From the NCBI RefSeq assembly GCF_013315695.1, contig NZ_CP054353.1: 64,000 bases of DNA; one strand, 5' to 3'. Source of the DNA: Escherichia coli (GTDB taxonomy: Bacteria; Pseudomonadota; Gammaproteobacteria; Enterobacterales; Enterobacteriaceae). The notes beneath the pieces were generated by a model. That model did not search any database, was not told the DNA's origin, and saw nothing but the letters and a program-made list of their open reading frames with translations. Shown one piece after another: positions 5,376-42,358 of this stretch (position 1 is its first letter; each line of letters begins with the position of its first letter). Made by a program: the position numbers and the translations under genes.

Positions 5376-6110
5376 GTGAAAGTCATCATTGTTGAAGACG
5401 AATTCCTGGCACAACAGGAACTGAGCTGGCTAATTAAAGAGCACAGCCAGATGGAGATTGTCGGCACCTTTGACGACGGTCTGGACGTGTTGAAGTTTTT
5501 GCAGCATAACCGCGTCGACGCCATTTTTCTGGATATCAATATTCCGTCGCTGGATGGTGTGTTGCTGGCGCAAAACATCAGCCAGTTCGCCCATAAACCG
5601 TTTATTGTGTTCATCACCGCGTGGAAAGAACATGCGGTAGAAGCGTTTGAACTGGAAGCGTTTGACTACATTCTCAAACCGTATCAGGAGTCACGCATTA
5701 CCGGGATGCTGCAAAAACTGGAAGCAGCCTGGCAACAACAGCAGACCAGCAGTACGCCTGCCGCGACGGTAACGCGTGAGAATGACACCATTAATCTGGT
5801 GAAAGATGAGCGAATCATCGTCACGCCCATTAACGATATCTATTACGCCGAAGCGCATGAGAAAATGACCTTTGTCTATACGCGGCGTGAATCCTACGTA
5901 ATGCCGATGAACATTACCGAGTTTTGCAGCAAGCTGCCGCCGTCGCATTTTTTCCGCTGCCATCGCTCATTTTGTGTCAATCTGAACAAAATCCGCGAGA
6001 TCGAACCGTGGTTTAATAACACCTATATTCTGCGGCTGAAAGATCTGGATTTTGAAGTGCCGGTCAGCCGCAGCAAAGTTAAAGAATTCCGCCAGTTAAT
6101 GCATCTTTAA
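5376..6110 (+). CDS. ypdB: LytTR-family response regulator, 244 aa (YpdB)
   Basis: Chose GTG at 5376 (VKVIIVEDE) with GGAG upstream; receiver domain plus C-terminal LytTR DNA-binding domain; immediately follows ypdA. Confidence 0.9.
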   Translation: MKVIIVEDEFLAQQELSWLIKEHSQMEIVGTFDDGLDVLKFLQHNRVDAIFLDINIPSLDGVLLAQNISQFAHKPFIVFITAWKEHAVEAFELEAFDYILKPYQESRITGMLQKLEAAWQQQQTSSTPAATVTRENDTINLVKDERIIVTPINDIYYAEAHEKMTFVYTRRESYVMPMNITEFCSKLPPSHFFRCHRSFCVNLNKIREIEPWFNNTYILRLKDLDFEVPVSRSKVKEFRQLMHL

Positions 6111-6122
6111 TCGGGAACTTTC

Positions 6123-6980
6123 ATGAAAGCACCAGGCTTGCCCGCCGATCAACAATTTTTCGCCGATCTGTTCAGCGGCCTGGTGCTTAACCCGCAACTA
6201 CTGGGGCGCGTCTGGTTTGCCAGCCAGCCTGCCTCATTGCCAGTGGGCAGTTTATGTATTGATTTTCCCCGTCTGGATATCGTGCTACGCGGCGAATACG
6301 GCAATCTGCTGGAAGCAAAGCAGCAACGTATGGTGGAAGGAGAAATGCTGTTTATTCCGGCACGCGCGGCTAATTTACCGGTCAACAACAAACCGGTGAT
6401 GCTGTTAAGCCTGGTGTTCGCACCGACCTGGCTTGGGTTATCGTTTTACGATAGCCGCACCACGTCGTTGTTGCATCCTGCCCGCCAGATCCAGCTTCCC
6501 AGCCTGCAACGCGGCGAAGGTGAAGCGATGCTTACCGCCCTCACCCATCTTAGCCGTTCGCCGCTGGAGCAGAATATCATTCAGCCACTGGTGTTAAGTT
6601 TGCTGCATCTTTGCCGCAACGTGGTGAATATGCCACCGGGCAATTCGCAGCCGCGCGGCGATTTTCTCTATCACAGCATTTGTAACTGGGTTCAGGATAA
6701 TTATGCCCAGCAGCTCACCCGCGAGAGCGTGGCTCAGTTTTTTAATATCACGCCCAATCATCTGTCAAAACTGTTTGCTCAGCATGGAACAATGCGTTTT
6801 ATCGAGTATGTTCGCTGGGTACGAATGGCAAAGGCAAGGATGATTTTGCAGAAATATCATCTGTCGATTCATGAAGTGGCACAGCGTTGCGGTTTTCCGG
6901 ACAGCGACTATTTTTGTCGCATTTTCCGGCGTCAGTTTGGCCTGACGCCGGGAGAGTACAGCGCCCGTTTTCAGGGCTAA
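6123..6980 (+). CDS. ypdC: AraC/XylS-family transcriptional regulator, 285 aa
   Basis: C-terminal AraC-type HTH region (HLSKLF...RFIEYVRWVRMAKA...); 13 bp downstream of ypdB. Confidence 0.85.
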   Translation: MKAPGLPADQQFFADLFSGLVLNPQLLGRVWFASQPASLPVGSLCIDFPRLDIVLRGEYGNLLEAKQQRMVEGEMLFIPARAANLPVNNKPVMLLSLVFAPTWLGLSFYDSRTTSLLHPARQIQLPSLQRGEGEAMLTALTHLSRSPLEQNIIQPLVLSLLHLCRNVVNMPPGNSQPRGDFLYHSICNWVQDNYAQQLTRESVAQFFNITPNHLSKLFAQHGTMRFIEYVRWVRMAKARMILQKYHLSIHEVAQRCGFPDSDYFCRIFRRQFGLTPGEYSARFQG

Positions 6981-6982
6981 CG

Positions 6983-9478
6983 TCAGAAGGTTAATTCCGT
7001 TTCCAGCAGCGTCAGGATGCTTTGCGCATCTTGCGCGGCGAACAGCGACTGGCGGAAGTTTTTATTCACCAGTTTGCGCGCCAGCTGCGAGAAGACTTTC
7101 ACATGGCTCATCCCTTCGTTAGCACCTAACGTCAGCATGATCACCAGTTCGACTTCGCCCATTTCTGACTGCCAGTCAACCGGTTTCACCAGCCGGGCAA
7201 TGCTGATACTGGAATGACGGATCCACTGAGATTTGGTGTGCGGGATCGCTACGCCAAAACCAACGCCGGTGGTAACAATCTCTTCCCGCTGCCAGACATC
7301 TTCTTCCAGCTCAAACGGATGTTCAGTACGCCCGTTAACGCCGAGGTTACCGCACAGGAACTGGATCGCCTGCTCTTTATTGCTAAAGGCCTGATCAACG
7401 AAGATATTCTCCAGCGCCAGCAGCGGGCGAACGTCTTCTTCCGGCGTAAACGCGGTGAGTAACGCTTCAATCTCCTGCGCGCTGCGGCATTCACATGCCT
7501 GACGCGCCAGTTCCCGACACGCCTCGCTATCCAGTTGACGAAGCTGGCTTTTCACCGCCGGAATGCGCGGGCTACTCATACTCAGCTCGTCCAGGCCCAG
7601 CCCAAGCAGTAGCGGCAGATAACGACTTTCACCGCCCAGTTCACCGCAAATACCTACCCATTTACCCCGCTGATGCGCAGTGGTAACAATCTGCTGCAAC
7701 ATGCGCAGGAACGATGGCGTAATCGGGTTATACAGCGGCGATACGCGCGGGTTATTACGATCGACCGCATACAGATACTGGGTCATATCGTTGGAGCCGA
7801 TACTGAAGAAATCGACCTCATCGCAGAAGTGATCGATGATGTAGCACACCGACGGCACTTCCACCATGATACCCAGCGTAATCGTCTCTGCATGACGCAG
7901 GCCATCGCGCTTAAGCTCAACGATCGCTTTTTGGATCTCGCCCTTCACCCATAAGATCTGATCGAGGCTGTGAACCATCGGGATCATCAACTGGGCGTTG
8001 CCGAAACAGGCAGCACGCAAAATCGCCCGCAGTTGAGTGCGGAACAGGCCAGCAAATTCCGGGTAAATACGTACCGCGCGATAGCCGAGGAACGGGTTCT
8101 CTTCCTGGGGAATATTCAGATAAGGAATGCTTTTATCGCCGCCGATGTCCATCGTGCGGAAGATAATCGGCTTGTCGCCCGCCGCCAGTAGCACCTGCTG
8201 GTAGGCTTCAAATTGCTCCTGCTCGTCCGGCGCGCTGTCGCGATCCATATAGAGCATTTCGGTACGGAACAGCCCGACACCTTCCGCGCCGTTGGCAAAC
8301 GCGCCTGGCGCTTCCAGCGCGGTGCCGATATTCGCCGCAATATCAATACGCTTGTTATCACGGGAATAGGCCAGCTGCGCGGCGGCCTGCGCCTGTTGTT
8401 TTTGGCGTTTATCCGCCAGCGTCTGCGCAACCTGATAATAACCGCTCACCGCGTCATTCGGGTTAATCGCCAGCACGCCGCACTGGGCGTCAAGCACTGC
8501 AGGTTGCCCGGCATAACGGGCAATCGCATCCAGCGGCAGGCCGCTCAGTACCGGGATCGCCGAAGCGCGGGCCAGGATCAGGGTATGCGAGGTGCGCCCG
8601 GTTTTCTCCAGAATCATGCCCGCAAGATTTTTTAAATCGAGGCTCAAAAACTGGCTTGGGGTTAAATCTTCAGCCACCAGAATAGTCGGTTTTTCAAGCA
8701 CCAGATTATTGCGCGGTTTTAGTTCCGGCCAGGTGATATGCAGCAACTGTTCGCTGATATCGCGAATGTCGCTGACCCGCTCGCGCAGATAATCGCTGGC
8801 AGAAGCAGAAAGTTTGGCACAAACCTGCTCCATATTGCTGATGATCGCCGCCCCCAGCCCCTGATGCTGTTCTGCCATCAGGTGACGGATATTGCCTGCA
8901 AATTCATCATCCTGAATCAGCGACAAATGGGCGCTGAGGATAGTTTTGCTTTCGCCGTCACGCTCACGCAATTGCTGGTTCAGTTGCTCGGCAAGCGTTG
9001 CCAGACTGTGCTCCAGCAGGGTGGAATCTTGCGCACTGGCCGGTATTGCCCGATAACTGTCGAGGCTGTCGCTCTGTAACAGGGTCAGCGTACCCACGCC
9101 GACGCCGCTTGCCAGCACATTGCCGTACAGTAAATCAGGATTCAGACGGCTTAATGAACGCGGCAGCGGATGCGCCGTCAGTTCTGCCTGCGTTGGCTGG
9201 ACGCTGTCGCTGTCGATAAAGCGCGCCTGGATGTACTCTTCCAGCACGCGCCGCGCCTGCTCTTCATCGCTGCCGCTAATGTTCAGGCTGCAACTGTCAT
9301 TAAATAGGGTGCCGGTGCCAATCAGCGCCAGCGAGCTTTTCGCATCTGCCTTTGCGTTCTGGCGATGGTTGATGAAGGTGATTTCGCTTTGCCACTGGCT
9401 GCACTGTTCTTTAAGTTCCCACGCCGGACGAGCATGCAGACCGTTAGGCAGAGGACAGAGAAATTGAATCGTTAGCAT
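6983..9478 (-). CDS. fryA: PTS multiphosphoryl transfer protein (EIIA-HPr-EI fusion), 831 aa
   Basis: N-terminal HPr-like domain (GLHARPA), internal EI core and C-terminal EIIA-like domain; last gene of a minus-strand operon. Confidence 0.9.
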   Translation of the reverse strand: MLTIQFLCPLPNGLHARPAWELKEQCSQWQSEITFINHRQNAKADAKSSLALIGTGTLFNDSCSLNISGSDEEQARRVLEEYIQARFIDSDSVQPTQAELTAHPLPRSLSRLNPDLLYGNVLASGVGVGTLTLLQSDSLDSYRAIPASAQDSTLLEHSLATLAEQLNQQLRERDGESKTILSAHLSLIQDDEFAGNIRHLMAEQHQGLGAAIISNMEQVCAKLSASASDYLRERVSDIRDISEQLLHITWPELKPRNNLVLEKPTILVAEDLTPSQFLSLDLKNLAGMILEKTGRTSHTLILARASAIPVLSGLPLDAIARYAGQPAVLDAQCGVLAINPNDAVSGYYQVAQTLADKRQKQQAQAAAQLAYSRDNKRIDIAANIGTALEAPGAFANGAEGVGLFRTEMLYMDRDSAPDEQEQFEAYQQVLLAAGDKPIIFRTMDIGGDKSIPYLNIPQEENPFLGYRAVRIYPEFAGLFRTQLRAILRAACFGNAQLMIPMVHSLDQILWVKGEIQKAIVELKRDGLRHAETITLGIMVEVPSVCYIIDHFCDEVDFFSIGSNDMTQYLYAVDRNNPRVSPLYNPITPSFLRMLQQIVTTAHQRGKWVGICGELGGESRYLPLLLGLGLDELSMSSPRIPAVKSQLRQLDSEACRELARQACECRSAQEIEALLTAFTPEEDVRPLLALENIFVDQAFSNKEQAIQFLCGNLGVNGRTEHPFELEEDVWQREEIVTTGVGFGVAIPHTKSQWIRHSSISIARLVKPVDWQSEMGEVELVIMLTLGANEGMSHVKVFSQLARKLVNKNFRQSLFAAQDAQSILTLLETELTF

Positions 9479-9568
9479 AACCGCTCCGGGTTAATCAGGA
9501 GATCATCTGAAATCCGTCAGTTGAACAACCGTCTCACGCGTAAGACGTTGAATAAGGGCAGATAAAAG

Positions 9569-10540
9569 TTACTGCATCTGCAAAATGTCGCGGCAATCGG
9601 CAATCGATGCCGCGCAATGTCCGTGGCGGGTGGCAGGCCCCATCACCACTGTGGGTACGCCAGTGCCGGTTAAATGCATCGCTCCACCGTCCGTGCCGCC
9701 GTTGCTGAACATATCTGCCTGTAACGGCACGCCAATTTCTGCCGCCACGGTTTCAATCCACGCGGTAAGTTTTGGCGGCGCAATCAGCGATTTATCGCTT
9801 AACACCAGCATCGGGCCGTTACCAATCTGACGATGGTTAGCCGCGCCATAATCAAAGTTTTTCGCCCAGCAGGCGGTATCAAGCACAATGGCGACGTCCG
9901 GCGACACCGCGCGGGTGGCAGTTTGCCCGCCGCGTAATCCCACCTCTTCGCTGGAACTTGCCACCAGCCACACTTCCGCAGGCAGTTCGGCGTCGTGCAG
10001 CTCACGTAGTAACGTCACCAGCAGATAGCAACCGAGGCGATCATCAAAGGCTTTCCCCATCACCCGCTGGTGCGGGAGAACCTGAAAAGTTGTATCAAAG
10101 GTGACGCGATCGCCTGGACGAATTCCCACCTGCATCACTTCGTCATACGAGCGCGCACCAATGTCCACGCGCATGGTGCTGACGTCATTTCCCTGCCGGT
10201 CGCCGTCAAGCAGGCCAGGTATTTTGCACTCTTCACGGGTGGTGATGCGCACCGGCTGAAGCTGTCGGGCAGCCATGCGTACATTGCCAACCGGCAACAC
10301 ATCGATCGCCCCTTCGCGGGAGATGCTGCGCACCATAAATCCCACTTCATCCATATGCGCACAGATCATCACCTTCGGACCTGTCGATTCATTGAGGCGG
10401 ATCAGCACCGATCCCAGGCCGTCAAATCGCACTTCTTTTTGCAGGCGATCCGCTTCTTCCAGCAGGATCTGCCGTACTTCCTGTTCCGAGGAGGCGATCG
10501 CATCTGCCTCGCTCAACGCTTTTAATAGCGATAAATCCAT
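9569..10540 (-). CDS. ypdE: M42-family aminopeptidase
   Basis: 323-aa ORF; its ATG overlaps the ypdF stop (TAATG), indicating translational coupling. Confidence 0.85.
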
Positions 10541-11625
10541 TATGCCTCTCCCGTGAGCAACACTGTTTTCGGCATGGCGTAGAGCACTTCTGCGCCTTGC
10601 GGGGTGACCAGCACAACATCTTCGATGCGCACGCCCCCTTGCCCTGGCAAATAAATCCCCGGCTCCACGGTCAGTAACATGCCTGGCTGTAGCGTCGTGG
10701 TGTCCCGCGGTGAAAAACGCGGATCTTCATGGACTTCAATGCCGATAGCATGACCGGTGTTATGACCGAAATAGTCGCCAAATCCAGCCTCGGTAATCAC
10801 CCGGCGCGCGGCGTCGTCAACCTGCTGGCAGCGCACGCCGGGGCGAATCGCGGAGATTGCCGCGAGCTGTGCCTGCAAAACAATCTGATAGACGTCAAAC
10901 AGCGGGTGAGATTCGGCGCTCACCCCTTCGCCATTCACCAGCAAGGTGCGCGTCATATCAGAGCAGTAGCCCTGATACAGCGCACCAAAATCAAGAGTGA
11001 CAAACTCGCCCGCTGCAACAATCTTGTCGCTGGCTTTACCGTGCGGCAGCACCCCACGCCAGCCACTGGCGACAATGGTATCGAAAGAGGCTTTTTCTGC
11101 GCCCTGCTGGCGCATAAACCACTCCAGTTCAGCGGCTATCTCGCGCTCGCTCATTCCCGCCTGAATAAAGCGGCGAATATGCTCTGCACCGCGATCGGCA
11201 ATCCCACAGGCGAGGCGGATTTTCTCCACCTCCTCTGGCGTTTTGATTTGCCGCAGCACATCCGGCGTGGCGCTTACCAGTTTCGCATTGAGTTCAGACT
11301 GCCAGCGGTGCGCGGTTTCCCAACTCACCTGCTGGCCTTCAAAACCGAGCGTTTGCAACTGCTCATCGGCAATGATTTGCCTGGCGATGGTTGCAAGCGT
11401 GTGCGTCGCGTCAAGCAAATGCAGCTGGTAACCTTGCGTGCGGGCTTCTACATCCGCGTAATAGCGCGAGTCCACCAGAATGTGCGCACTTTCACGGCTA
11501 ATCAGCACATAGCCTGATCCGGTGGAGATCCCCAGATGCGGCTGTTTGTTCTGCCGTGAGGAGAGAAGCACCGCATCCAGTTGTTGCGCCTTAAGCCAGT
11601 CACGCAGCGAAGCGAGTAATGTCAT
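10540..11625 (-). CDS. ypdF: M24-family Xaa-Pro aminopeptidase, 361 aa
   Basis: Creatinase/prolidase N-terminus plus M24 metal-binding core ([13 protein letters not shown]). Confidence 0.85.
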
Positions 11626-11639
11626 CTGGATTTTCCTTC

Positions 11640-12887
11640 TTACAGGCTATCGATTAACAATTTGCCTTTACGGAACATCATCAGACGCAGGAACACCACC
11701 ATCAGCGCAGTAATGACTGCTCCCAGCGCGATCCCCGCCATATAGACGCCCAGGTTAGTGACCAGTGGCCATGCCCAGATAGCGGACTCCGGGAACCATT
11801 GCACTGCGCCCAGCCAGACTGCAGCGGTTGAGCCGACAATCGCGCCAACCATATAGGACGGAATGGCGGTGATGGGACTTTCCAGTGCAAACGGAATCGC
11901 ACCTTCACTGATCCCCATAAACGCCAGGAACATGGCGGTTTTACCCTGCGGATAAAGCTGAGCACTGAACAGACGTTTGCCGGTTAAACGGCGGTCGATA
12001 ATGGTCGCCAGACCCAGACCAATCGGCGGAATAACAATAGCGATGGAACGCGCGGTAACCGGTAATACGTGGTCAGTGGTAAAGCTGAAGGCAACGAAAC
12101 CAGCTGCTTTGTTGATCGGGCCACCAAGGTCGATTGCTGTCGCCGCGGCGATCCCCATCGCGTACATCAGCGCGCCCTTCTCACCTGCGGCAGTCAGCAC
12201 GGTACGGATACCGCCGTTGATCCAGCCACCAAAGGGGGTGATGACGTAGTACATCGCCAGCATGACAAAAATGGCGGAAAGAATCGGTAGCAAAAATGTG
12301 GTTTTGAACGCTAACAGGAAATCCGGTAACTGGATTTTCTGGTTCATCCACTTCACAAGGTAACCAGCAACGATAGAAATAATCAGGGCACCAATGAAGG
12401 TGGACGGCACCGGCGAAGAGGTCGCCCATTGCATAGTGCTGGGATCGAAGTTCAGCAGTTGCGTCGGCTGGGTAGACATCAAGCCGCCGATAAAACCAGC
12501 CGGGAACGCCAGTTTGCCACCGATGGAGTTCGCCACAAAAGCGGCAAACATCGGTATGGCAAAGCCAAACAGCACGCCACCAAAGGACTGTGACAGCCAG
12601 GCAAACTTCAGTAAGGAGAGGTCGAAACCGGAGAATTTCCCGCTATTAAGAGCATCCATGATGCCGATATCAGCAGGAATTTTAAGCCAGCTATAAGCAA
12701 TCAGCTGGCTGAAAGCGAGGATCACACCGCCCATAATTAAGGTCGGCACCATGCGTGAAATCCCTGACATCACATGCTGCGGGAGTTCACCCCAGAAGCT
12801 GGATTTAGAGGCCTGCGGATTCTTAACTGCCGCTGCCGCACCGGATGCGCCAGGCACAACGGTTGCACTGCGTTTTTTAATGGCCAT
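11640..12887 (-). CDS. fryC: PTS fructose-like EIIC permease, 415 aa
   Basis: Polytopic membrane protein of the PTS EIIC (fructose) family. Confidence 0.85.
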
Positions 12888-12908
12888 AACAATTATCCCT
12901 GTCGAATA

Positions 12909-13235
12909 TTACTGTTGTTCAGAGGCAATCATCTCTTCGATTTCTTTGATGATTCCCGCAGCGTTTTTAATTGTGTCCTGCAAAGTGATTTCATAAACGT
13001 CGCGTGATTCGAAACGTTCGTTATCTTCCGGGGTAACTGCCACGGAGTGGATGATGATGGTCGCTTCGGCGATATCCTGCGCCGTCAGGCGATTCTGGAT
13101 ACCGTCCGCGCCCTGGGTTTCAATTTTCACTTCATAACCGGCTTCTACCGCCGCTTCTTCCAGCGCCTGAGCGGCCATAAAAGTGTGAGCCAGGCCCATT
13201 GGGCAGGCACATAAGGCAATCAGTTTCTTACTCAT
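12909..13235 (-). CDS. fryB: PTS fructose-like EIIB, 108 aa
   Basis: Small soluble protein with active-site cysteine motif (ALCACPMGLAHTFMAA); first gene of the fry operon. Confidence 0.85.
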   Translation of the reverse strand: MSKKLIALCACPMGLAHTFMAAQALEEAAVEAGYEVKIETQGADGIQNRLTAQDIAEATIIIHSVAVTPEDNERFESRDVYEITLQDTIKNAAGIIKEIEEMIASEQQ

Positions 13236-13416
13236 CGTTAATTCCTCGTTCAGTGATAGTTAACGAGTGAAATTATGAACGTGCAAAACAAATCGCCGTT
13301 ACCAGACAAATAATGCATTTACTGGAGAATTAATCCCGCTGTACGGAAGTGTGACGCAGGTCGGCCTTGTGAGGGGACACAAAGAAAAATTGAATTAACT
13401 GTATGATTTAAAAGAT

Positions 13417-13440
13417 TATCGGGAGAGTTACCTCCCGATA
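13417..13440 (-). terminator. hairpin terminator downstream of glk
   Basis: TATCGGGAG-AGTTAC-CTCCCGATA perfect 9-bp stem, 14 bp beyond the glk stop, followed on the minus strand by AATCTTTT. Confidence 0.5.
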
Positions 13441-13453
13441 TAACAGGAAGGAT

Positions 13454-14419
13454 TTAGAGAATGTGACCTAAGGTCTGGCGTAAATGTGCACCGGAACCGA
13501 GAAGACCCGGATTGTCATGGACGATGAGATATACCGGAATATCATGGACATATTCCTTAAAGCGCCCTTTATCTTCAAATGCGGCGCGGAAACCAGAGGC
13601 TTTGAAGAACTCAAGGAAGCGCGGCACGATACCACCCGCAATAAACACGCCGCCAAATGTCCCGAGATTGAGCGCCAGATTGCCGCCAAAACGGCCCATA
13701 ATGACGCAAAACAGCGACAACGCGCGGCGGCAATCGGTGCAGCTGTCAGCCAGCGCGCGTTCGGTAATATCTTTTGGCTTGAGATTTTCTGGCAGGCGGT
13801 TGTCGGCTTTAACAATTGCGCGATACAAATTCACCAGCCCAGGGCCAGAAAGCACGCGCTCTGCCGAAACATGACCAATTTCTGCACGCAGTATTTCGAG
13901 GATAATGCCCTCTTCTTCACTATTCGGCGCAAAATCAACGTGACCGCCTTCGCCTGGCAAGCTTACCCAACGCTTATCGACATGGACCAGATGCGCAACC
14001 CCTAGCCCCGTTCCGGCACCGTAAACCGCAATAGGCTTACCTTCTACCGGTTCTGCGCCACCAAACTGAATCAGATGCTCTTTTTTCAGCATCGGGATCG
14101 CCATCGATACAGCAGTAAAATCGTTAATAATTTCCAGATGGCTAAAACCGAGATTCTTTTTCATTTCGGCAATTGAGAACGCCCAGGTATGGTTGGTCAT
14201 TGCCACCCAGTCACCGGTAATTGGGCAAGCGATGGCAATACAGCCGTCTTTCACCTCGACCTTATGTTCTTCAAGATAAACGCGAATGACCGCTTCGAGG
14301 CTGGGGTAATCAAGCCCTGAATAGGTCTTAGCCTGCGAGATTTCACCACTGGCAATATCACACAGAGCAAGACGTGCGTTGGTGCCGCCCACATCACCGA
14401 CTAATGCATACTTTGTCAT
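13454..14419 (-). CDS. glk: glucokinase, 321 aa
   Basis: N-terminal [12 protein letters not shown]-binding motif; full-length glucokinase. Confidence 0.95.
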
Positions 14420-14622
14420 TCTTCAACTGCTCCGCTAAAGTCAAAATAATTCTTTCTCACACTGTAAATACCTGGGGGCATAACAACAACGCCGGAAAGG
14501 CAGGCTCCCTGTAAATATCGATCTGGGTCACACAATTACTTTATCGTTTCAGCACCAATTGCAGCGATGCCTTTTTGCAAGCTGGGCAAACTAAGTATCT
14601 GACCCCGCATAAGGAATAGAAC

Positions 14623-15879
14623 ATGCTCCATCCGCGAGCCAGAACCATGTTGTTATTATCGCTCCCCGCCGTGGCAATTGGGATTGCGTCCAGTCTTATT
14701 CTGATTGTGGTGATGAAAATCGCCTCGGTATTACAGAATTTGCTCTGGCTACGACTGCCGGGAACTCTGGGGATAGCCCAGGATTCACCTTTCTGGATCA
14801 TCGCCATATTAACGCTAACAGGTATTGCGGTGGGGTTGGTTATCCGTTTCAGCCAGGGGCATGCTGGACCAGACCCCGCCTGTGAACCGCTGATCGGCGC
14901 ACCGGTTCCGCCCTCTGCGCTACCAGGACTTATCGTAGCATTAATTCTCGGTCTTGCTGGCGGCGTCAGCCTGGGGCCGGAACATCCGATCATGACCGTC
15001 AATATCGCCCTTGCGGTTGCGATAGGTGCTCGTCTGTTACCGCGCGTCAACCGGATGGAGTGGACAATTTTAGCCTCTGCTGGAACCATCGGCGCGCTGT
15101 TTGGCACACCTGTTGCGGCGGCGTTGATATTTTCGCAAACCTTAAATGGCAGTAGTGAAGTCCCGCTATGGGATCGTCTCTTTGCGCCGTTAATGGCGGC
15201 GGCGGCTGGTGCGCTAACCACCGGATTGTTTTTCCATCCTCATTTTTCACTGCCCATTGCGCATTATGGGCAGATGGAGATGACCGATATTCTCAGCGGT
15301 GCAATTGTGGCGGCGATTGCCATCGCAGCAGGGATGGTTGCCGTATGGTGTCTGCCACGGTTGCACGCGATGATGCATCAGATTAAAAATCCGGTGCTAA
15401 TGCTGGGAGTGGGCGGATTTATTCTCGGTATTCTGGGGGTTATTGCTGGACCAGTTTCGCTATTTAAAGGGCTGGATGAGATGCAGCAGATGGTGGCAAA
15501 TCAGGCTTTCAGCACCAGCGATTACTTTTTGCTGGCCGTGATTAAACTTGCCGCTCTCGTGGTTGCTGCCGCCAGTGGCTTTCGCGGTGGGCGAATCTTC
15601 CCGGCAGTGTTTGTCGGGGTGGCATTAGGGTTGATGCTGCATGAGCACGTTCCCGCCGTTCCAGCGGCAATAACCGTTTCCTGCGCTATTCTCGGCATCG
15701 TGCTGGTGGTAACACGCGATGGCTGGTTAAGTCTTTTTATGGCGGCAGTCGTTGTACCCAATACCACATTGCTACCGCTGCTCTGTATCGTCATGCTTCC
15801 GGCATGGCTGTTATTAGCAGGTAAGCCGATGATGATGGTCAATCGTCCGAAGCAACAGCCACCCCACGATAACGTTTAG
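14623..15879 (+). CDS. yfeO: ClC-family putative ion channel/transporter, 418 aa
   Basis: Polytopic membrane protein with Gly/Ala-rich helices; divergent from glk. Confidence 0.85.
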
Positions 15880-15993
15880 CAAAAAATGCTCTCCTTTATG
15901 ATTTAAGAGTTATGGCGATGATACGGGGCTTTACCTCCCCGTAATATTGCGTTAACAGGCCGCTGACGGCTTCGATCGTGAAGGAGAATAACA

Positions 15994-16320
15994 ATGTTCA
16001 GGTCACTGTTTCTGGCGGCCGCCCTGATGGCATTTACCCCGCTTGCGGCAAACGCAGGTGAAATCACCCTACTGCCATCAATCAAATTACAAATTGGCGA
16101 TCGCGATCATTACGGTAATTACTGGGACGGTGGTCACTGGCGCGACCGTGACTACTGGCATCGCAATTATGAATGGCGTAAGAACCGCTGGTGGCGTCAT
16201 GATAATGGCTACCACCGTGGCTGGGATAAGCGTAAAGCCTATGAGCGTGGCTATCGTGAAGGCTGGCGCGATCGTGACGATCATCGCGGAAAAGGCCGCG
16301 GACATGGGCATCGCCATTAA
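15994..16320 (+). CDS. ypeC: secreted low-complexity Arg/Asp/Trp/His-rich protein, 108 aa (YpeC-like)
   Basis: Signal peptide [21 protein letters not shown] then repetitive RD(R/H)xYW-type motifs ending GRGHGHRH. Confidence 0.8.
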
Positions 16321-16344
16321 ACACATTTGCCAATGGAGCACAAT

Positions 16345-16380
16345 GCCTGATGCGACGCTAGTGCGTCTTATCAGGCCTAC
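16345..16380. repeat. REP (repetitive extragenic palindrome) element
   Basis: GCCTGATGCGACGCTAGTGCGTCTTATCAGGCCTAC, classic enterobacterial REP palindrome in the ypeC-mntH gap. Confidence 0.8.
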
Positions 16381-16398
16381 AAACCGGCTCTTTAACGC

Positions 16399-16433
16399 GT
16401 AGGGCGGATAAGGCGTTTTACGCCGCATCCGCC
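16399..16433. repeat. second REP element (inverted relative to the first)
   Basis: GTAGGGCGGATAAGGCGTTTTACGCCGCATCCGCC; with the previous repeat forms a BIME-like pair. Confidence 0.7.
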
Positions 16434-16461
16434 AGTGGTGCCTGCTCCGACACCAGTTCCA

Positions 16462-17709
<1,248 letters not shown>

Positions 17710-19257: not shown

Positions 19258-19270
19258 GGGGATAATTCCC
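19258..19270. repeat. left 13-bp target-site duplication of IS4
   Basis: GGGGATAATTCCC immediately outside the IS4 end; identical copy at 20697-20709. Confidence 0.75.
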
Positions 19271-20696
19271 TAATGCCAGTCAGTTAAGCAACTGACTGGC
19301 TCTTTTTCGGGGCTGTGGGGTATTTCCAGGGCCTCTCCTTTACCACTCTCGGGAAGGCCCTTTCCCTTCTTGTCGGTAATTTCACAAGTTGTCCCATACT
19401 TGCAAGATCGCGCATCAGCTCCGGTATACGTCCCGGTGAAGCGCCCTGCAATGTCATCAGCATTCTCATCACCATTCCGCATGATTCTGAGAAACTCAGT
19501 TGATTCGGCCAGTAACCTTTCAGATGTTCCGCCATTTTAATCATCTGATATCTCACCAGATTATAAGCCAGTAAGACACCCCACAGCTCTTGCTCCACAA
19601 GCTCCGGTTTTTTACTTCTCAGCGTCAGCCTGCTCAGTTGCATCGTCTGTTTTATCTCCCTGTATCCCAGTTCGATTTCCCAGCGATGACTGTACAGATC
19701 CGCCATTTCTCCTCCGGGGAAGCGCATGGCGTCCGTCATCGACGTCAGCAGATGGCAGACTTTTCCTTTGCGCGTCACGGTCAGCAGGCGGGCTGTCACT
19801 TCATTTCCCAGTCCCGGCCACTTTTTTCGTGCCTGCGGGCTGGTTTTCAGCTTCACCAGATGATCGCCTTTACCCAGTTTTCTGATCTCTTCATATTGCG
19901 CTCCCTTTCTGAGAGGTATCATCCAGTGGCGGTGTTCTCCCGCCAGGCTCCAGGCATTTAACAGTCCCAGTGAGTAATAACCTTTATCCATTAACGTCAG
20001 AGTGTTATCGCCGGTTTGTTCTATAAGTTGCTCAGCAAGCTCATTTTCGCTGTTCTTCATCGTGCCGAAGGCTGCAGCCGTCAGCAGATGGCTGGTCAGT
20101 TCCATCTGGCAGACCATTTTGACCTGCGGGTAGAGCGCCGGGTTCCCGGCATGTGTCTGGCGGGGGAAGGCTGCATCGTTCTCTGGTGTATCCGGTGTGC
20201 GCCAGAACACACCATCGATGGCCAGCAGGGTCAGGCCGCACCAGTGCGGATGCGGCGTGGCGTTATGCCAGAGCTGCGCTGTTTTCGTGAACACGCGGCG
20301 GACAGCCTCACTTCCCAGGCGCTGGCGGGCCTGAATAACGGCACTGGGGGCAACGAAGGGGCGATTGCCCGGCAGCATGATGTCCAGGCGATTCACAATC
20401 TGGTGAAGAGGTTCTTTACGCTCAAGCGCCATGCCAACAATACACCAGACCATCATTTCGAGGGGAAGACGGCGCTTGCGTAGCGTTACAGTACCTGATT
20501 CGGCAAGGCAACGAGAGATGAGTTCGGGGTCGAGGTAATCCCCCAGAGAAGTCAGTGGGTTACGCAGAGAATCGTAACGGGATACCAGATCAAGAGCCTG
20601 TCCAATGTGCATAAAAAAATCCGGAAACAAGTGAGCGTTTCCGGATTCTTACACAGCCACTGGATCGGTCAACTGATCCTTAACTGATCGGCATTA
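19271..20696 (-). mobile_element. IS4 insertion sequence, complete (1426 bp)
   Basis: Terminal inverted repeats TAATGCCAGTCAGTTAAG (19271-19288) and TAATGCCGATCAGTTAAG (reverse complement of 20679-20696), 16 of 18 identical; length exactly 1426 bp; one 442-aa IS4-family transposase ORF; flanked by a 13-bp direct repeat. Confidence 0.85.
19284..20612 (-). CDS. insG: IS4 transposase (DDE, IS4 family), 442 aa
   Basis: ORF 19284-20630; ATG at 20612 gives MHIGQALDL... (442 aa), with an in-frame TTG 6 codons upstream; contains the IS4-family YREK signature ([15 protein letters not shown]). Confidence 0.85.
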
Positions 20697-20709
20697 GGGG
20701 ATAATTCCC
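20697..20709. repeat. right 13-bp target-site duplication of IS4
   Basis: GGGGATAATTCCC; removing IS4 and one copy restores the palindrome AAAAAAGCCGGGGATAATTCCCCGGTTTTTT. Confidence 0.75.
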
Positions 20710-23122: not shown

Positions 23123-23198
<76 letters not shown>

Positions 23199-23237
23199 AC
23201 GAGTCGTTTACGTACCAATTTTGTTGGGTGCAAAATT

Positions 23238-23313
<76 letters not shown>

Positions 23314-27759: not shown

Positions 27760-27835
27760 GGGTGATTAGCTCAGCTGGGAGAGCACCTCCCTTACAAGGA
27801 GGGGGTCGGCGGTTCGATCCCGTCATCACCCACCA
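27760..27835 (+). tRNA. valU: tRNA-Val (anticodon UAC)
   Basis: 76 nt GGGUGAUUAGCUCAGCUGGGAGAGCACCUCCCUUACAAGGAGGGGGUCGGCGGUUCGAUCCCGUCAUCACCCACCA; anticodon loop CUUACAA; encoded CCA. Confidence 0.92.
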
Positions 27836-27879
27836 ACTACTTTATGTAGTCTCCGCCGTGTAGCAAGAAATTGAGAAGT

Positions 27880-27955
27880 GGGTGATTAGCTCAGCTGGGA
27901 GAGCACCTCCCTTACAAGGAGGGGGTCGGCGGTTCGATCCCGTCATCACCCACCA
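27880..27955 (+). tRNA. valY: tRNA-Val (anticodon UAC), identical second copy
   Basis: Exact duplicate of the previous tRNA after a 44-bp spacer; which K-12 paralog name applies is uncertain. Confidence 0.9.
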
Positions 27956-27959
27956 CTTC

Positions 27960-28035
27960 GGGTCGTTAGCTCAGTTGGTAGAGCAGTTGACTTTTAATCA
28001 ATTGGTCGCAGGTTCGAATCCTGCACGACCCACCA
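27960..28035 (+). tRNA. lysV: tRNA-Lys (anticodon UUU)
   Basis: 76 nt GGGUCGUUAGCUCAGUUGGUAGAGCAGUUGACUUUUAAUCAAUUGGUCGCAGGUUCGAAUCCUGCACGACCCACCA, 4 bp after the preceding tRNA-Val. Confidence 0.92.
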
Positions 28036-40630: not shown

Positions 40631-42358
40631 ATGATTTCAGGCATTTTAGCATCCCCGGGTATCGCTTTCGGTAAAGCTCTGCTTCTGAAAGAAGACGAAA
40701 TTGTCATTGACCGGAAAAAAATTTCTGCCGACCAGGTTGATCAGGAAGTTGAACGTTTTCTGAGCGGTCGTGCCAAGGCATCAGCCCAGCTGGAAACGAT
40801 CAAAACGAAAGCTGGTGAAACGTTCGGTGAAGAAAAAGAAGCCATCTTTGAAGGGCATATTATGCTGCTCGAAGATGAGGAGCTGGAGCAGGAAATCATA
40901 GCCCTGATTAAAGATAAGCACATGACAGCTGACGCAGCTGCTCATGAAGTTATCGAAGGTCAGGCTTCTGCCTTGGAAGAGCTGGATGATGAATACCTGA
41001 AAGAACGTGCGGCTGACGTACGTGATATCGGTAAGCGCCTGCTGCGCAACATCCTGGGCCTGAAGATTATCGACCTGAGCGCCATTCAGGATGAAGTCAT
41101 TCTGGTTGCCGCTGACCTGACGCCGTCCGAAACCGCACAGCTGAACCTGAAGAAGGTGCTGGGTTTCATCACCGACGCGGGTGGCCGTACTTCCCACACC
41201 TCTATCATGGCGCGTTCTCTGGAACTGCCTGCTATCGTGGGTACCGGTAGCGTCACCTCTCAGGTGAAAAATGACGACTATCTGATTCTGGATGCCGTAA
41301 ATAATCAGGTTTACGTCAATCCAACCAACGAAGTTATTGATAAAATGCGCGCTGTTCAGGAGCAAGTGGCTTCTGAAAAAGCAGAGCTTGCTAAACTGAA
41401 AGATCTGCCAGCTATTACGCTGGACGGTCACCAGGTAGAAGTGTGCGCTAACATTGGTACGGTTCGTGACGTTGAAGGTGCAGAGCGTAACGGCGCTGAA
41501 GGCGTTGGTCTGTATCGTACTGAGTTCCTGTTCATGGACCGCGACGCGCTGCCCACTGAAGAAGAACAGTTTGCTGCTTACAAAGCAGTGGCTGAAGCGT
41601 GTGGCTCGCAGGCGGTTATCGTTCGTACCATGGACATCGGCGGCGACAAAGAGCTGCCATACATGAACTTCCCGAAAGAAGAGAACCCGTTCCTCGGCTG
41701 GCGCGCTATCCGTATCGCGATGGATCGTAAAGAGATCCTGCGCGATCAGCTCCGCGCTATCCTGCGTGCCTCGGCTTTCGGTAAATTGCGCATTATGTTC
41801 CCGATGATCATCTCTGTTGAAGAAGTGCGTGCACTGCGCAAAGAGATCGAAATCTACAAACAGGAACTGCGCGACGAAGGTAAAGCGTTTGACGAGTCAA
41901 TTGAAATCGGCGTAATGGTGGAAACACCGGCTGCCGCAACAATTGCACGTCATTTAGCCAAAGAAGTTGATTTCTTTAGTATCGGCACCAATGATTTAAC
42001 GCAGTACACTCTGGCAGTTGACCGTGGTAATGATATGATTTCACACCTTTACCAGCCAATGTCACCGTCCGTGCTGAACTTGATCAAGCAAGTTATTGAT
42101 GCTTCTCATGCTGAAGGCAAATGGACTGGCATGTGTGGTGAGCTTGCTGGCGATGAACGTGCTACACTTCTGTTGCTGGGGATGGGTCTGGACGAATTCT
42201 CTATGAGCGCCATTTCTATCCCGCGCATTAAGAAGATTATCCGTAACACGAACTTCGAAGATGCGAAGGTGTTAGCAGAGCAGGCTCTTGCTCAACCGAC
42301 AACGGACGAGTTAATGACGCTGGTTAACAAGTTCATTGAAGAAAAAACAATCTGCTAA
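40631..42358 (+). CDS. ptsI: PTS enzyme I, 575 aa
   Basis: Full-length EI with phospho-His region ([21 protein letters not shown]) and PEP-utilising domain. Confidence 0.97.

Follow-up and report, generated by a model that had tools for sequence, protein, structure and literature searches.

A 64,000-nucleotide (nt) stretch of the Escherichia coli contig NZ_CP054353.1 (assembly GCF_013315695.1), hereafter the window, carries a cluster of minus-strand genes in which a sugar phosphotransferase system (PTS) is combined with two aminopeptidases. The cluster is the E. coli core-genome operon fryB-fryC-ypdF-ypdE-fryA, accompanied by ypdC, a convergent gene encoding an AraC-type regulator. It is an already annotated, known locus and not a new kind of system. 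Of 5426 complete E. coli genomes, 5424 matched an 8-kb query comprising bases 6500-14500 of the window; only six records shared at least 99% identity with the window over these bases, the other complete-genome records falling between 95 and 99%, hence the lineage of the window is a rare one. The fry locus shared 98-100% identity with annotated E. coli chromosomes. K-12 MG1655 and near-identical RefSeq genomes were found to encode the same genes, which in K-12 are b2387-b2383 (fryB to fryA) and b2382 (ypdC). Order, strand, spacing and neighbours also agreed between K-12 and the window, the difference being a nonsense mutation (Q324*) that leaves the ypdE of the window with 323 rather than 345 codons. 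The glk gene is located upstream of fryB, whilst ypdA (pyrS), ypdB (pyrR) and ypdC lie beyond fryA on the opposite strand. The genes and the features that delimit them are as follows.

13417 to 13440, minus strand: intrinsic terminator of glk, which parts glk from the fry transcription unit
12909 to 13235, minus strand: fryB, PTS EIIB of the fructose type, 108 amino acids (open reading frame and TIGR00829)
11640 to 12887, minus strand: fryC, PTS EIIC of the fructose family, 415 amino acids (open reading frame and TIGR01427)
10540 to 11625, minus strand: ypdF, M24B aminopeptidase (Creatinase_N and Peptidase_M24), 361 amino acids, intact (NF007310)
10538 to 10542, minus strand: TAATG, in which the TAA of ypdF (10542-10540) shares base 10540 with the ATG of ypdE (10540-10538)
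9569 to 10540, minus strand: ypdE, M42 aminopeptidase, truncated allele of 323 amino acids (full length 345; NF007421)
6983 to 9478, minus strand: fryA, multiphosphoryl transfer protein HPr-EI-EIIA(Fru), 831 amino acids (family models)
6123 to 6980, plus strand: ypdC, AraC-family regulator, convergent with fryA (family model)

A prior reading of the window, made from the sequence only, had assigned the five fry genes to the minus strand and to these families, and had noted the TAATG overlap at 10538-10542; the open reading frames and NCBIfam models agreed with the assignments, and the stop codon of ypdF and start codon of ypdE do share one base. The interval 9569-13235, which that sequence-only reading had given as the whole operon, is too short, as fryA (6983-9478) falls outside it. 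Gaps of 21 nt and 14 nt separate fryB from fryC and fryC from ypdF, respectively, and ypdF overlaps ypdE by 1 nt. Terminator-like hairpins were sought at the fry gene junctions and none was found. With a common strand, tight or overlapping junctions, a conserved order and no junction terminator, the fry genes have the sequence hallmarks of a putative single operon, and they have been given as one transcription unit in a database-derived listing (PMC2731931). The stop codons of the convergent ypdC and fryA genes (window 6978-6985) are 2 bp apart without a terminator between them, therefore the two transcripts must overlap. This abutting arrangement was observed in most of the Enterobacterales loci.

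All of the motifs required for a phosphorelay were present in the encoded PTS proteins, namely His15, His298 and His747 of FryA and Cys11 of FryB. FryB scored 90.4 bits against the EIIB(Fru) model TIGR00829 (cutoff 76.85) and carries its putative phospho-cysteine, Cys11, within the motif ACPMG (ACPMGLAHT). FryC barely passed the EIIC(Fru) model TIGR01427 (157.7 bits; cutoff 157.55), and PF02378 was found in a FryC orthologue. The domains of FryA are arranged as HPr (residues 11-83), EI (118-674) and EIIA-Fru (687-812), an order also seen in the Pfam domains of its orthologue, and the EIIA-HPr-EI order previously stated for this protein requires correction. The EI domain exceeded the cutoff of TIGR01417 (503 versus 341.7) and includes the motif GRTSH298, and the EIIA domain exceeded that of TIGR00848 (141.7 versus 103.5) and includes IPH747. 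The sequence-only reading had credited the operon with a complete private PTS phosphorelay; the operon as a whole is not complete in this strain, where ypdE is truncated. The gene for the general EI, ptsI, is encoded at 40631-42358 (575 amino acids; NF008382, 1175 bits), approximately 27 kb from the fry operon, such that general and private EI genes both occur within the window.

Of the two peptidases, YpdF is intact. It matched the equivalog NF007310 over positions 1-361 of 361 with 813 bits (cutoff 393), and also the PDB entry 5CNX, 'Aminopeptidase YpdF' (E = 4e-233). The M42 open reading frame scored 642.5 against the YpdE equivalog NF007421 (cutoff 412) and covered profile positions 1-323 of 345; the reconstructed YpdE was near-identical to PDB 1YLO, the structure of a YpdE orthologue. 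Codon 324 of ypdE is TAA in the window, where base 9571 is A, and G in the closest relative. Position 9569, formerly taken as the end of ypdE, is consequently the end of a premature stop codon and not the natural terminus of the gene. Two further features are defined by this lesion.

9569 to 9571, minus strand: premature TAA (Q324*), with A in place of G at 9571
9503 to 9568, minus strand: untranslated ypdE remnant, comprising codons 325-345 and the original stop codon (comparison with annotated relatives)

The truncation deprives YpdE of 22 residues (323 versus 345 amino acids) and widens the gap between ypdE and fryA to 90 nt, compared to 24 nt where ypdE is full length. A 61-nt probe centred on the Q324* mutation had an exact match in only two of 5426 genomes, and in both the NCBI annotation pipeline (PGAP) had labelled ypdE a pseudogene with an 'internal stop'. 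The invariant M42 residues identified by alignment (H62, D64, D166, E198, E199, D221 and H308) all precede the stop. Nonetheless, each of 19 aligned YpdE homologues, FrvX and SgcX included, extends past residue 324, and the AlphaFold model of YpdE (mean predicted local distance difference test score 92.7) has confident helices at residues 316-331 and 335-342, the first of which is cut by the stop and the second removed. The open reading frame, ending at residue 323 of 345 without complete C-terminal helices, is not a full-length ypdE, and to judge from the model the function of the truncated protein is likely lost or impaired. The fry pathway is probably impaired in the window strain at the YpdE step, and perhaps also in fryA expression. 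The ypdE of the window is thus a rare truncated allele and makes a poor example of the wild type.

Whether the operon as a whole is maintained in the species was assessed from the ratios of nonsynonymous to synonymous substitution rates (dN/dS) among five diverse E. coli strains. These were 0.036 for fryA, 0.036 for ypdE, 0.13 for ypdF, 0.029 for fryC and 0.049 for fryB, and 0.022 and 0.061 for the flanking genes glk and yfeO. Many shortened YpdE variants, with in-frame deletions of 13-38 amino acids, are on record in the protein database; among 5402 complete genomes, however, 5394 had an intact copy of the ypdE segment affected by the commonest deletion. On this count, together with the dN/dS range of 0.03-0.13, decay of the operon across the species was rejected. 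Selection thus maintains the fry operon in E. coli, and its impairment is probably confined to this clone. The rates of synonymous substitution (dS) among the same strains were 0.12-0.17 for fryA, ypdE, ypdF and fryC and 0.06-0.09 for glk, ypdA, ypdB and yfeO, and the guanine-cytosine (GC) content of the fryA-fryC stretch (6983-12887) was 54-58%, compared to 51.8% for the window. The raised dS and GC content of the fry genes could reflect low expression or an older horizontal origin.

A more restricted form of decay, in which the locus of this strain or clone is a non-functional remnant, its ypdE nonsense mutation perhaps polar on fryA and selection relaxed, is possible though doubtful. Beyond the Q324* mutation and its annotation as a pseudogene, several lesions in other strains are in keeping with this explanation. 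In the close relative AF10, ypdC is interrupted by an internal stop and ypdF by a 1-bp frameshift; only eight differences separate AF10 from the window over 19 kb, and three of the eight are these two lesions and the ypdE stop of the window. AF3 carries the ypdE stop and a fryA that is shortened to 1574 nt and frameshifted, and ER1709 has a frameshift in fryC that MG1655 lacks. An in-frame deletion of fryA also raised fitness after prolonged growth in LB medium (PMC5364489). Against decay stand the low dN/dS across the species, the near-universal presence of the locus and the intact ypdE segment described above. Furthermore, the catalytic residues of YpdE precede codon 324, so some activity may remain, and some of the single-base frameshifts (OZ-series assemblies) could be sequencing or assembly errors. 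In mouse-bladder competition, a ypdE deletion mutant of the uropathogenic strain UTI89 fared worse than its competitor (competitive index 0.30; PMC8767336). Like the LB result, this agrees with the operon being of consequence in some niches; as the UTI89 mutant was attenuated, the fry substrate may be host-derived and relevant to colonisation. An ISEc45 element was observed between glk and yfeO in AF3 and MSB1_4I, and not in the window.

The pairing of PTS and peptidase genes was followed across other bacteria by a scan with YpdE, using one genome per species, in which 78 loci were annotated by tblastn with the window proteins. The order fryB-fryC-ypdF-ypdE-fryA was colinear in all 29 complete Enterobacterales loci, from about 30 species and with differing flanks, in Escherichia, Citrobacter, Salmonella arizonae and diarizonae, Kluyvera, Pseudocitrobacter, Enterobacter, Pluralibacter, Superficieibacter, Buttiauxella, Hafnia and others. 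The one-base overlap of the ypdF stop and ypdE start (T[AG]ATG) recurred in 25 of 31 Enterobacterales loci. Outside this order, the closest YpdE relatives (41-45% identity) were found at 13 loci in Firmicutes, and Pfam and tblastn indicated that every one of these encodes an operon of a PRD-type regulator, an M42 protein, a lactose/cellobiose-family IIA-IIB-IIC, an M24 protein and a pyridoxal phosphate (PLP) enzyme, the last being a PatB-family C-S lyase. The M42 protein of C. difficile scored 563 against the YpdE equivalog (cutoff 412). This cluster, present in C. difficile, Romboutsia, Terrisporobacter, Lactococcus, Latilactobacillus and L. sakei LT-13, shares with fry the closest YpdE relatives, a YpdF-like M24 protein and a PTS permease, but its PTS is of the Lac and not the Fru family, it depends on the general EI/HPr, its regulator is of the PRD and not the AraC type, and it has the C-S lyase in addition. 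The same cluster has been drawn for L. sakei LT-13, where MalY, the C-S lyase of the cluster, was shown to be a racemase and beta-lyase, and is missing from strain LK-145 (PMC5845896).

Further variants of the pairing were identified in the scan. In a divergent Enterobacterales metagenome-assembled genome (locus L037), a PatB-family C-S lyase gene directly follows fryA at 13623-14798. The ypdC-like gene of this locus is situated upstream of fryB, and the locus bridges the forms that the cluster takes in enterobacteria and in Firmicutes. Four more clostridial loci had tandem M42 genes adjoining Lac-family IIB/IIC genes. No PTS genes were detected with Fru- or Lac-type probes in loci L061-L087, from Ruminococcus and other Clostridia, where remoter M42 homologues (approximately 30% identity) are found in tandem pairs. 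AlaC was tried as the E. coli equivalent of the PLP enzyme of the Firmicutes and rejected, since it has 21% identity and is an aminotransferase of a different kind; it is not used as evidence here.

Within K-12, all three M42 paralogues (ypdE, frvX and sgcX) are encoded in PTS operons, and the description of the pairing as unusual was too strong. The cryptic frvABXR and sgcXBCQAER operons each encode an M42 protein by their EII genes, with FrvX and SgcX being 35% and 31% identical to YpdE over the full length. Unlike fry, neither has an M24 peptidase or a dedicated EI/HPr fusion; their regulators are FrvR and the DeoR-type SgcR, and sgc belongs to a different EII family than fry. To our knowledge, fry, frv and sgc are among the last PTS of E. 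coli K-12 without a substrate, and the M42 'peptidase' in each has never been explained.

That the PTS and peptidase genes behave as one unit, as the sequence-only reading proposed, is supported by the colinearity of 29 of 29 loci, the recurrent overlap and the counterpart operon of the Firmicutes. The pairing is recurrent and has outlasted a switch of transporter family. This speaks for a functional link, constitutes good evidence of a shared pathway and would suit a substrate in which a sugar is conjugated to an amino acid or peptide. An unlikely alternative is that the peptidases are passengers, with FryABC moving an ordinary fructose-like sugar whilst YpdE and YpdF act as general peptide recyclers on a shared transcript. 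All PTS parts are indeed of the fructose family, the operon encodes no sugar-processing enzyme, and M42 enzymes are generally seen as peptide-degrading TET complexes (PMC3511314). However, the M42 and M24 pair resides within an operon of a different PTS family at 13 Firmicute loci, the three E. coli M42 paralogues all occur with PTS genes, and both the gene order and the overlap suggestive of translational coupling are conserved across genera. As the pairing persists across phyla and transporter families, chance co-location is unlikely.

The regulation of the operon was considered from the genes that accompany it. Among 30 loci with enough flanking sequence, a ypdC-like gene was found near fry in 28, and was convergent with fryA and within 1.5 kb of it in 26. 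The ypdAB genes were near fry in only 11 of the 30, and glk in 16 of 29, yet ypdC was retained in genera without glk and ypdAB nearby; in Enterobacter mori the six-gene unit is located between rna and a flavin reductase gene. The grouping of ypdA, ypdB and ypdC as one signalling module is therefore not sustained, in that ypdC co-segregates with fry (28 of 30) far more than ypdAB does (11 of 30). This co-occurrence suggests that YpdC, rather than YpdAB, is probably the cognate regulator of the fry operon.

Direct control of fry by the YpdA/YpdB (PyrSR) pyruvate sensor is highly improbable. The loci are adjacent in Escherichia and Citrobacter, and in E. coli a gap of 12 nt separates ypdB from ypdC, the two probably sharing a transcript; any pyruvate-sensing link to fry would therefore be indirect, via the level of YpdC. 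No match to the YpdB direct-repeat motif GGCATTTCAT (taken from PMC4847170; at most one mismatch allowed) was found in 13236-13453, and the six matches in the window correspond to the chance level. Direct YpdB control was rejected on this negative search; in addition, yhjX has been described as the only YpdB target (PMC4847170), and ypdAB was not near fry in 19 of 30 loci, whereas ypdC persisted. In a still different role, FryA, FryB and FryC would not transport a substrate at all but relay phosphate for regulation, in the manner of PtsP-NPr-PtsN, responding to a signal by adjusting the peptidases or some other target. This idea could draw on the dedicated EI-HPr-EIIA fusion, which duplicates the general PtsHI of the window, and on the lack of a sugar-phosphate catabolic enzyme in the operon. 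It is very unlikely given that the membrane EIIC is full length and the EIIB has its active-site cysteine, both under purifying selection (0.029 and 0.049), and given a Firmicute counterpart with a complete IIA-IIB-IIC and a PRD regulator, typical of catabolic PTS operons.

The 260 nt upstream of fryB were aligned from 17 sequences with differing upstream neighbours. A footprint of approximately 100 bp was conserved whatever the upstream neighbour, and included a conserved Shine-Dalgarno sequence along with the following elements.

13236 to 13416, minus strand: regulatory region preceding fryB, downstream of the terminator of glk
13349 to 13362, minus strand: conserved GA-N6-TCACAC (footprint), a possible CRP half-site centred at about -92
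13326 to 13313 and 13306 to 13298, minus strand: conserved pair TCCAGTAAATGCAT ... TCTGGTAAC, with a period of about 20-21 bp (phylogenetic footprint)
13272 to 13277, minus strand: conserved CATAAT (footprint), a candidate -10 hexamer

The TCCAGTAAATGCAT/TCTGGTAAC pair, at about -61 to -33, may be regarded as a candidate AraC-type operator for YpdC that overlaps the -35 position. In araBAD-type promoters, AraC repeats overlap the -35 and a CRP site is located upstream; at fryB the pair ends about 20 nt before the -10, with a TCACA block some 92 nt upstream and a gene of the AraC family alongside. The likeness is one of arrangement only, and from it we infer a layout that recalls an araBAD-type, possibly CRP-assisted, promoter. 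A strong CRP site was excluded by a consensus search, although the conserved block has been kept in the description, its meaning being uncertain. Riboswitches and known RNAs were also excluded from the fry locus, as Rfam matched only tRNAs elsewhere in the window.

The overall explanation that best accounts for the locus, combining the identity of the operon with a mechanism, is favoured with moderate confidence. Transcription would start from an activator-dependent promoter upstream of fryB, with CATAAT as the -10, no good -35, and the repeat pair as the activator site. YpdC bound to an inducer would probably drive this promoter, possibly helped by CRP, to yield one transcript. Phosphoryl groups would then flow from phosphoenolpyruvate to His298 of FryA-EI, His15 of FryA-HPr, His747 of FryA-EIIA and Cys11 of FryB, with the final transfer to a sugar hydroxyl of the substrate taking place during translocation by FryC. 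The imported compound would be a sugar bearing an aminoacyl or short peptidyl group, which YpdE (M42, TET-type) and YpdF (M24B, Xaa-Pro/Met-type) would strip in the cytoplasm, and the resulting sugar phosphate would enter central metabolism. In view of the conserved pairing, a sugar-amino acid or sugar-peptide conjugate is plausible as the fry substrate. PTS import of a sugar-amino compound followed by cytoplasmic cleavage is known from pathways for Amadori compounds and amino-sugar conjugates, such as the Salmonella gfr (fructoselysine/glucoselysine) and dga (D-glucosaminate) systems. Their PTS permeases are of the mannose family and work with SIS-type deglycases or ammonia-lyases, not with M42/M24 peptidases; the fry operon has no SIS-type deglycase or ammonia-lyase.

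Several observations weigh against this explanation, both in its biochemistry and in its regulation. The operon encodes no deglycase, glycosidase or C-S lyase, so no local gene accounts for what follows once the peptide is removed. No paper in the library searched assigned fry a substrate or function, and a 2017 paper regarded fry as lacking an assigned function or known substrate, the handling of an unidentified compound having been proposed earlier. For the purified peptidases the annotation is that of ordinary aminopeptidases, and plain peptides may be their substrates. The HPr domain of FryA scored 39.7 bits against TIGR01003, under the cutoff of 47.9, though it has the motif GLH15ARPA and the listing for the orthologue includes PF00381. 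No sigma-70 promoter was detected at the scan threshold upstream of fryB; the lone minus-strand match near fryC (12921-12892) was within chance expectation. The CRP-like site is weak, with three mismatches to the consensus, and such matches occur at a chance rate in the window. YpdC gave no peaks in exonuclease-based chromatin immunoprecipitation (ChIP-exo) under the conditions tested (PMC8464067). Finally, the bladder phenotype of the UTI89 ypdE mutant could stem from a polar effect on fryA.

A broader proposal can be put forward only tentatively, and we consider it more likely wrong than right. The combination of a PTS with M42 and M24 proteins, joined by a PatB-type C-S lyase in Firmicutes and one Enterobacterales lineage, may represent one ancient catabolic module found across phyla, serving an undescribed class of substrates such as aminoacyl- or peptidyl-hexosamines or cysteine-linked sugar conjugates. 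Its 'aminopeptidases' would cleave the amino acid from a phosphorylated sugar, and YpdC would be the enterobacterial sensor. In the Peptostreptococcaceae, genes for an SIS protein of the AgaS (deaminase) family and a tagatose-bisphosphate aldolase resembling GatY were observed just upstream of the PRD-M42-PTS-M24-PatB operon (5691-7759 of locus L043; also L045, L048, L051 and L059), and in C. thermobutyricum a GatZ/KbaZ-like gene follows the cluster (15608-16951 of locus L052). Together with the C-S lyase, these neighbours hint at amino-sugar or cysteine-linked conjugates, albeit they may belong to separate operons.

For a locus already annotated, the additions made here are an overlooked nonsense allele, the recognition of ypdC and not ypdAB as the operon partner, a promoter footprint and a Firmicute counterpart with another PTS family. 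These comparative results narrow the experiments to be undertaken, and point to YpdC, not YpdAB, as the handle for induction.

Elsewhere in the window, an IS4-family element of approximately 1.4 kb was identified between nupC and pdeA at 19270-20697 (transposase open reading frame 19284-20630, minus strand). It occupies the same site in AF3 and does not occur in the near-identical AF10. Two tRNA clusters, ordinary for the region, were also found: a minus-strand pair of tRNA-Ala(GGC) genes at 23123-23313, and two tRNA-Val(TAC) genes with a tRNA-Lys(TTT) gene on the plus strand at 27760-28035.

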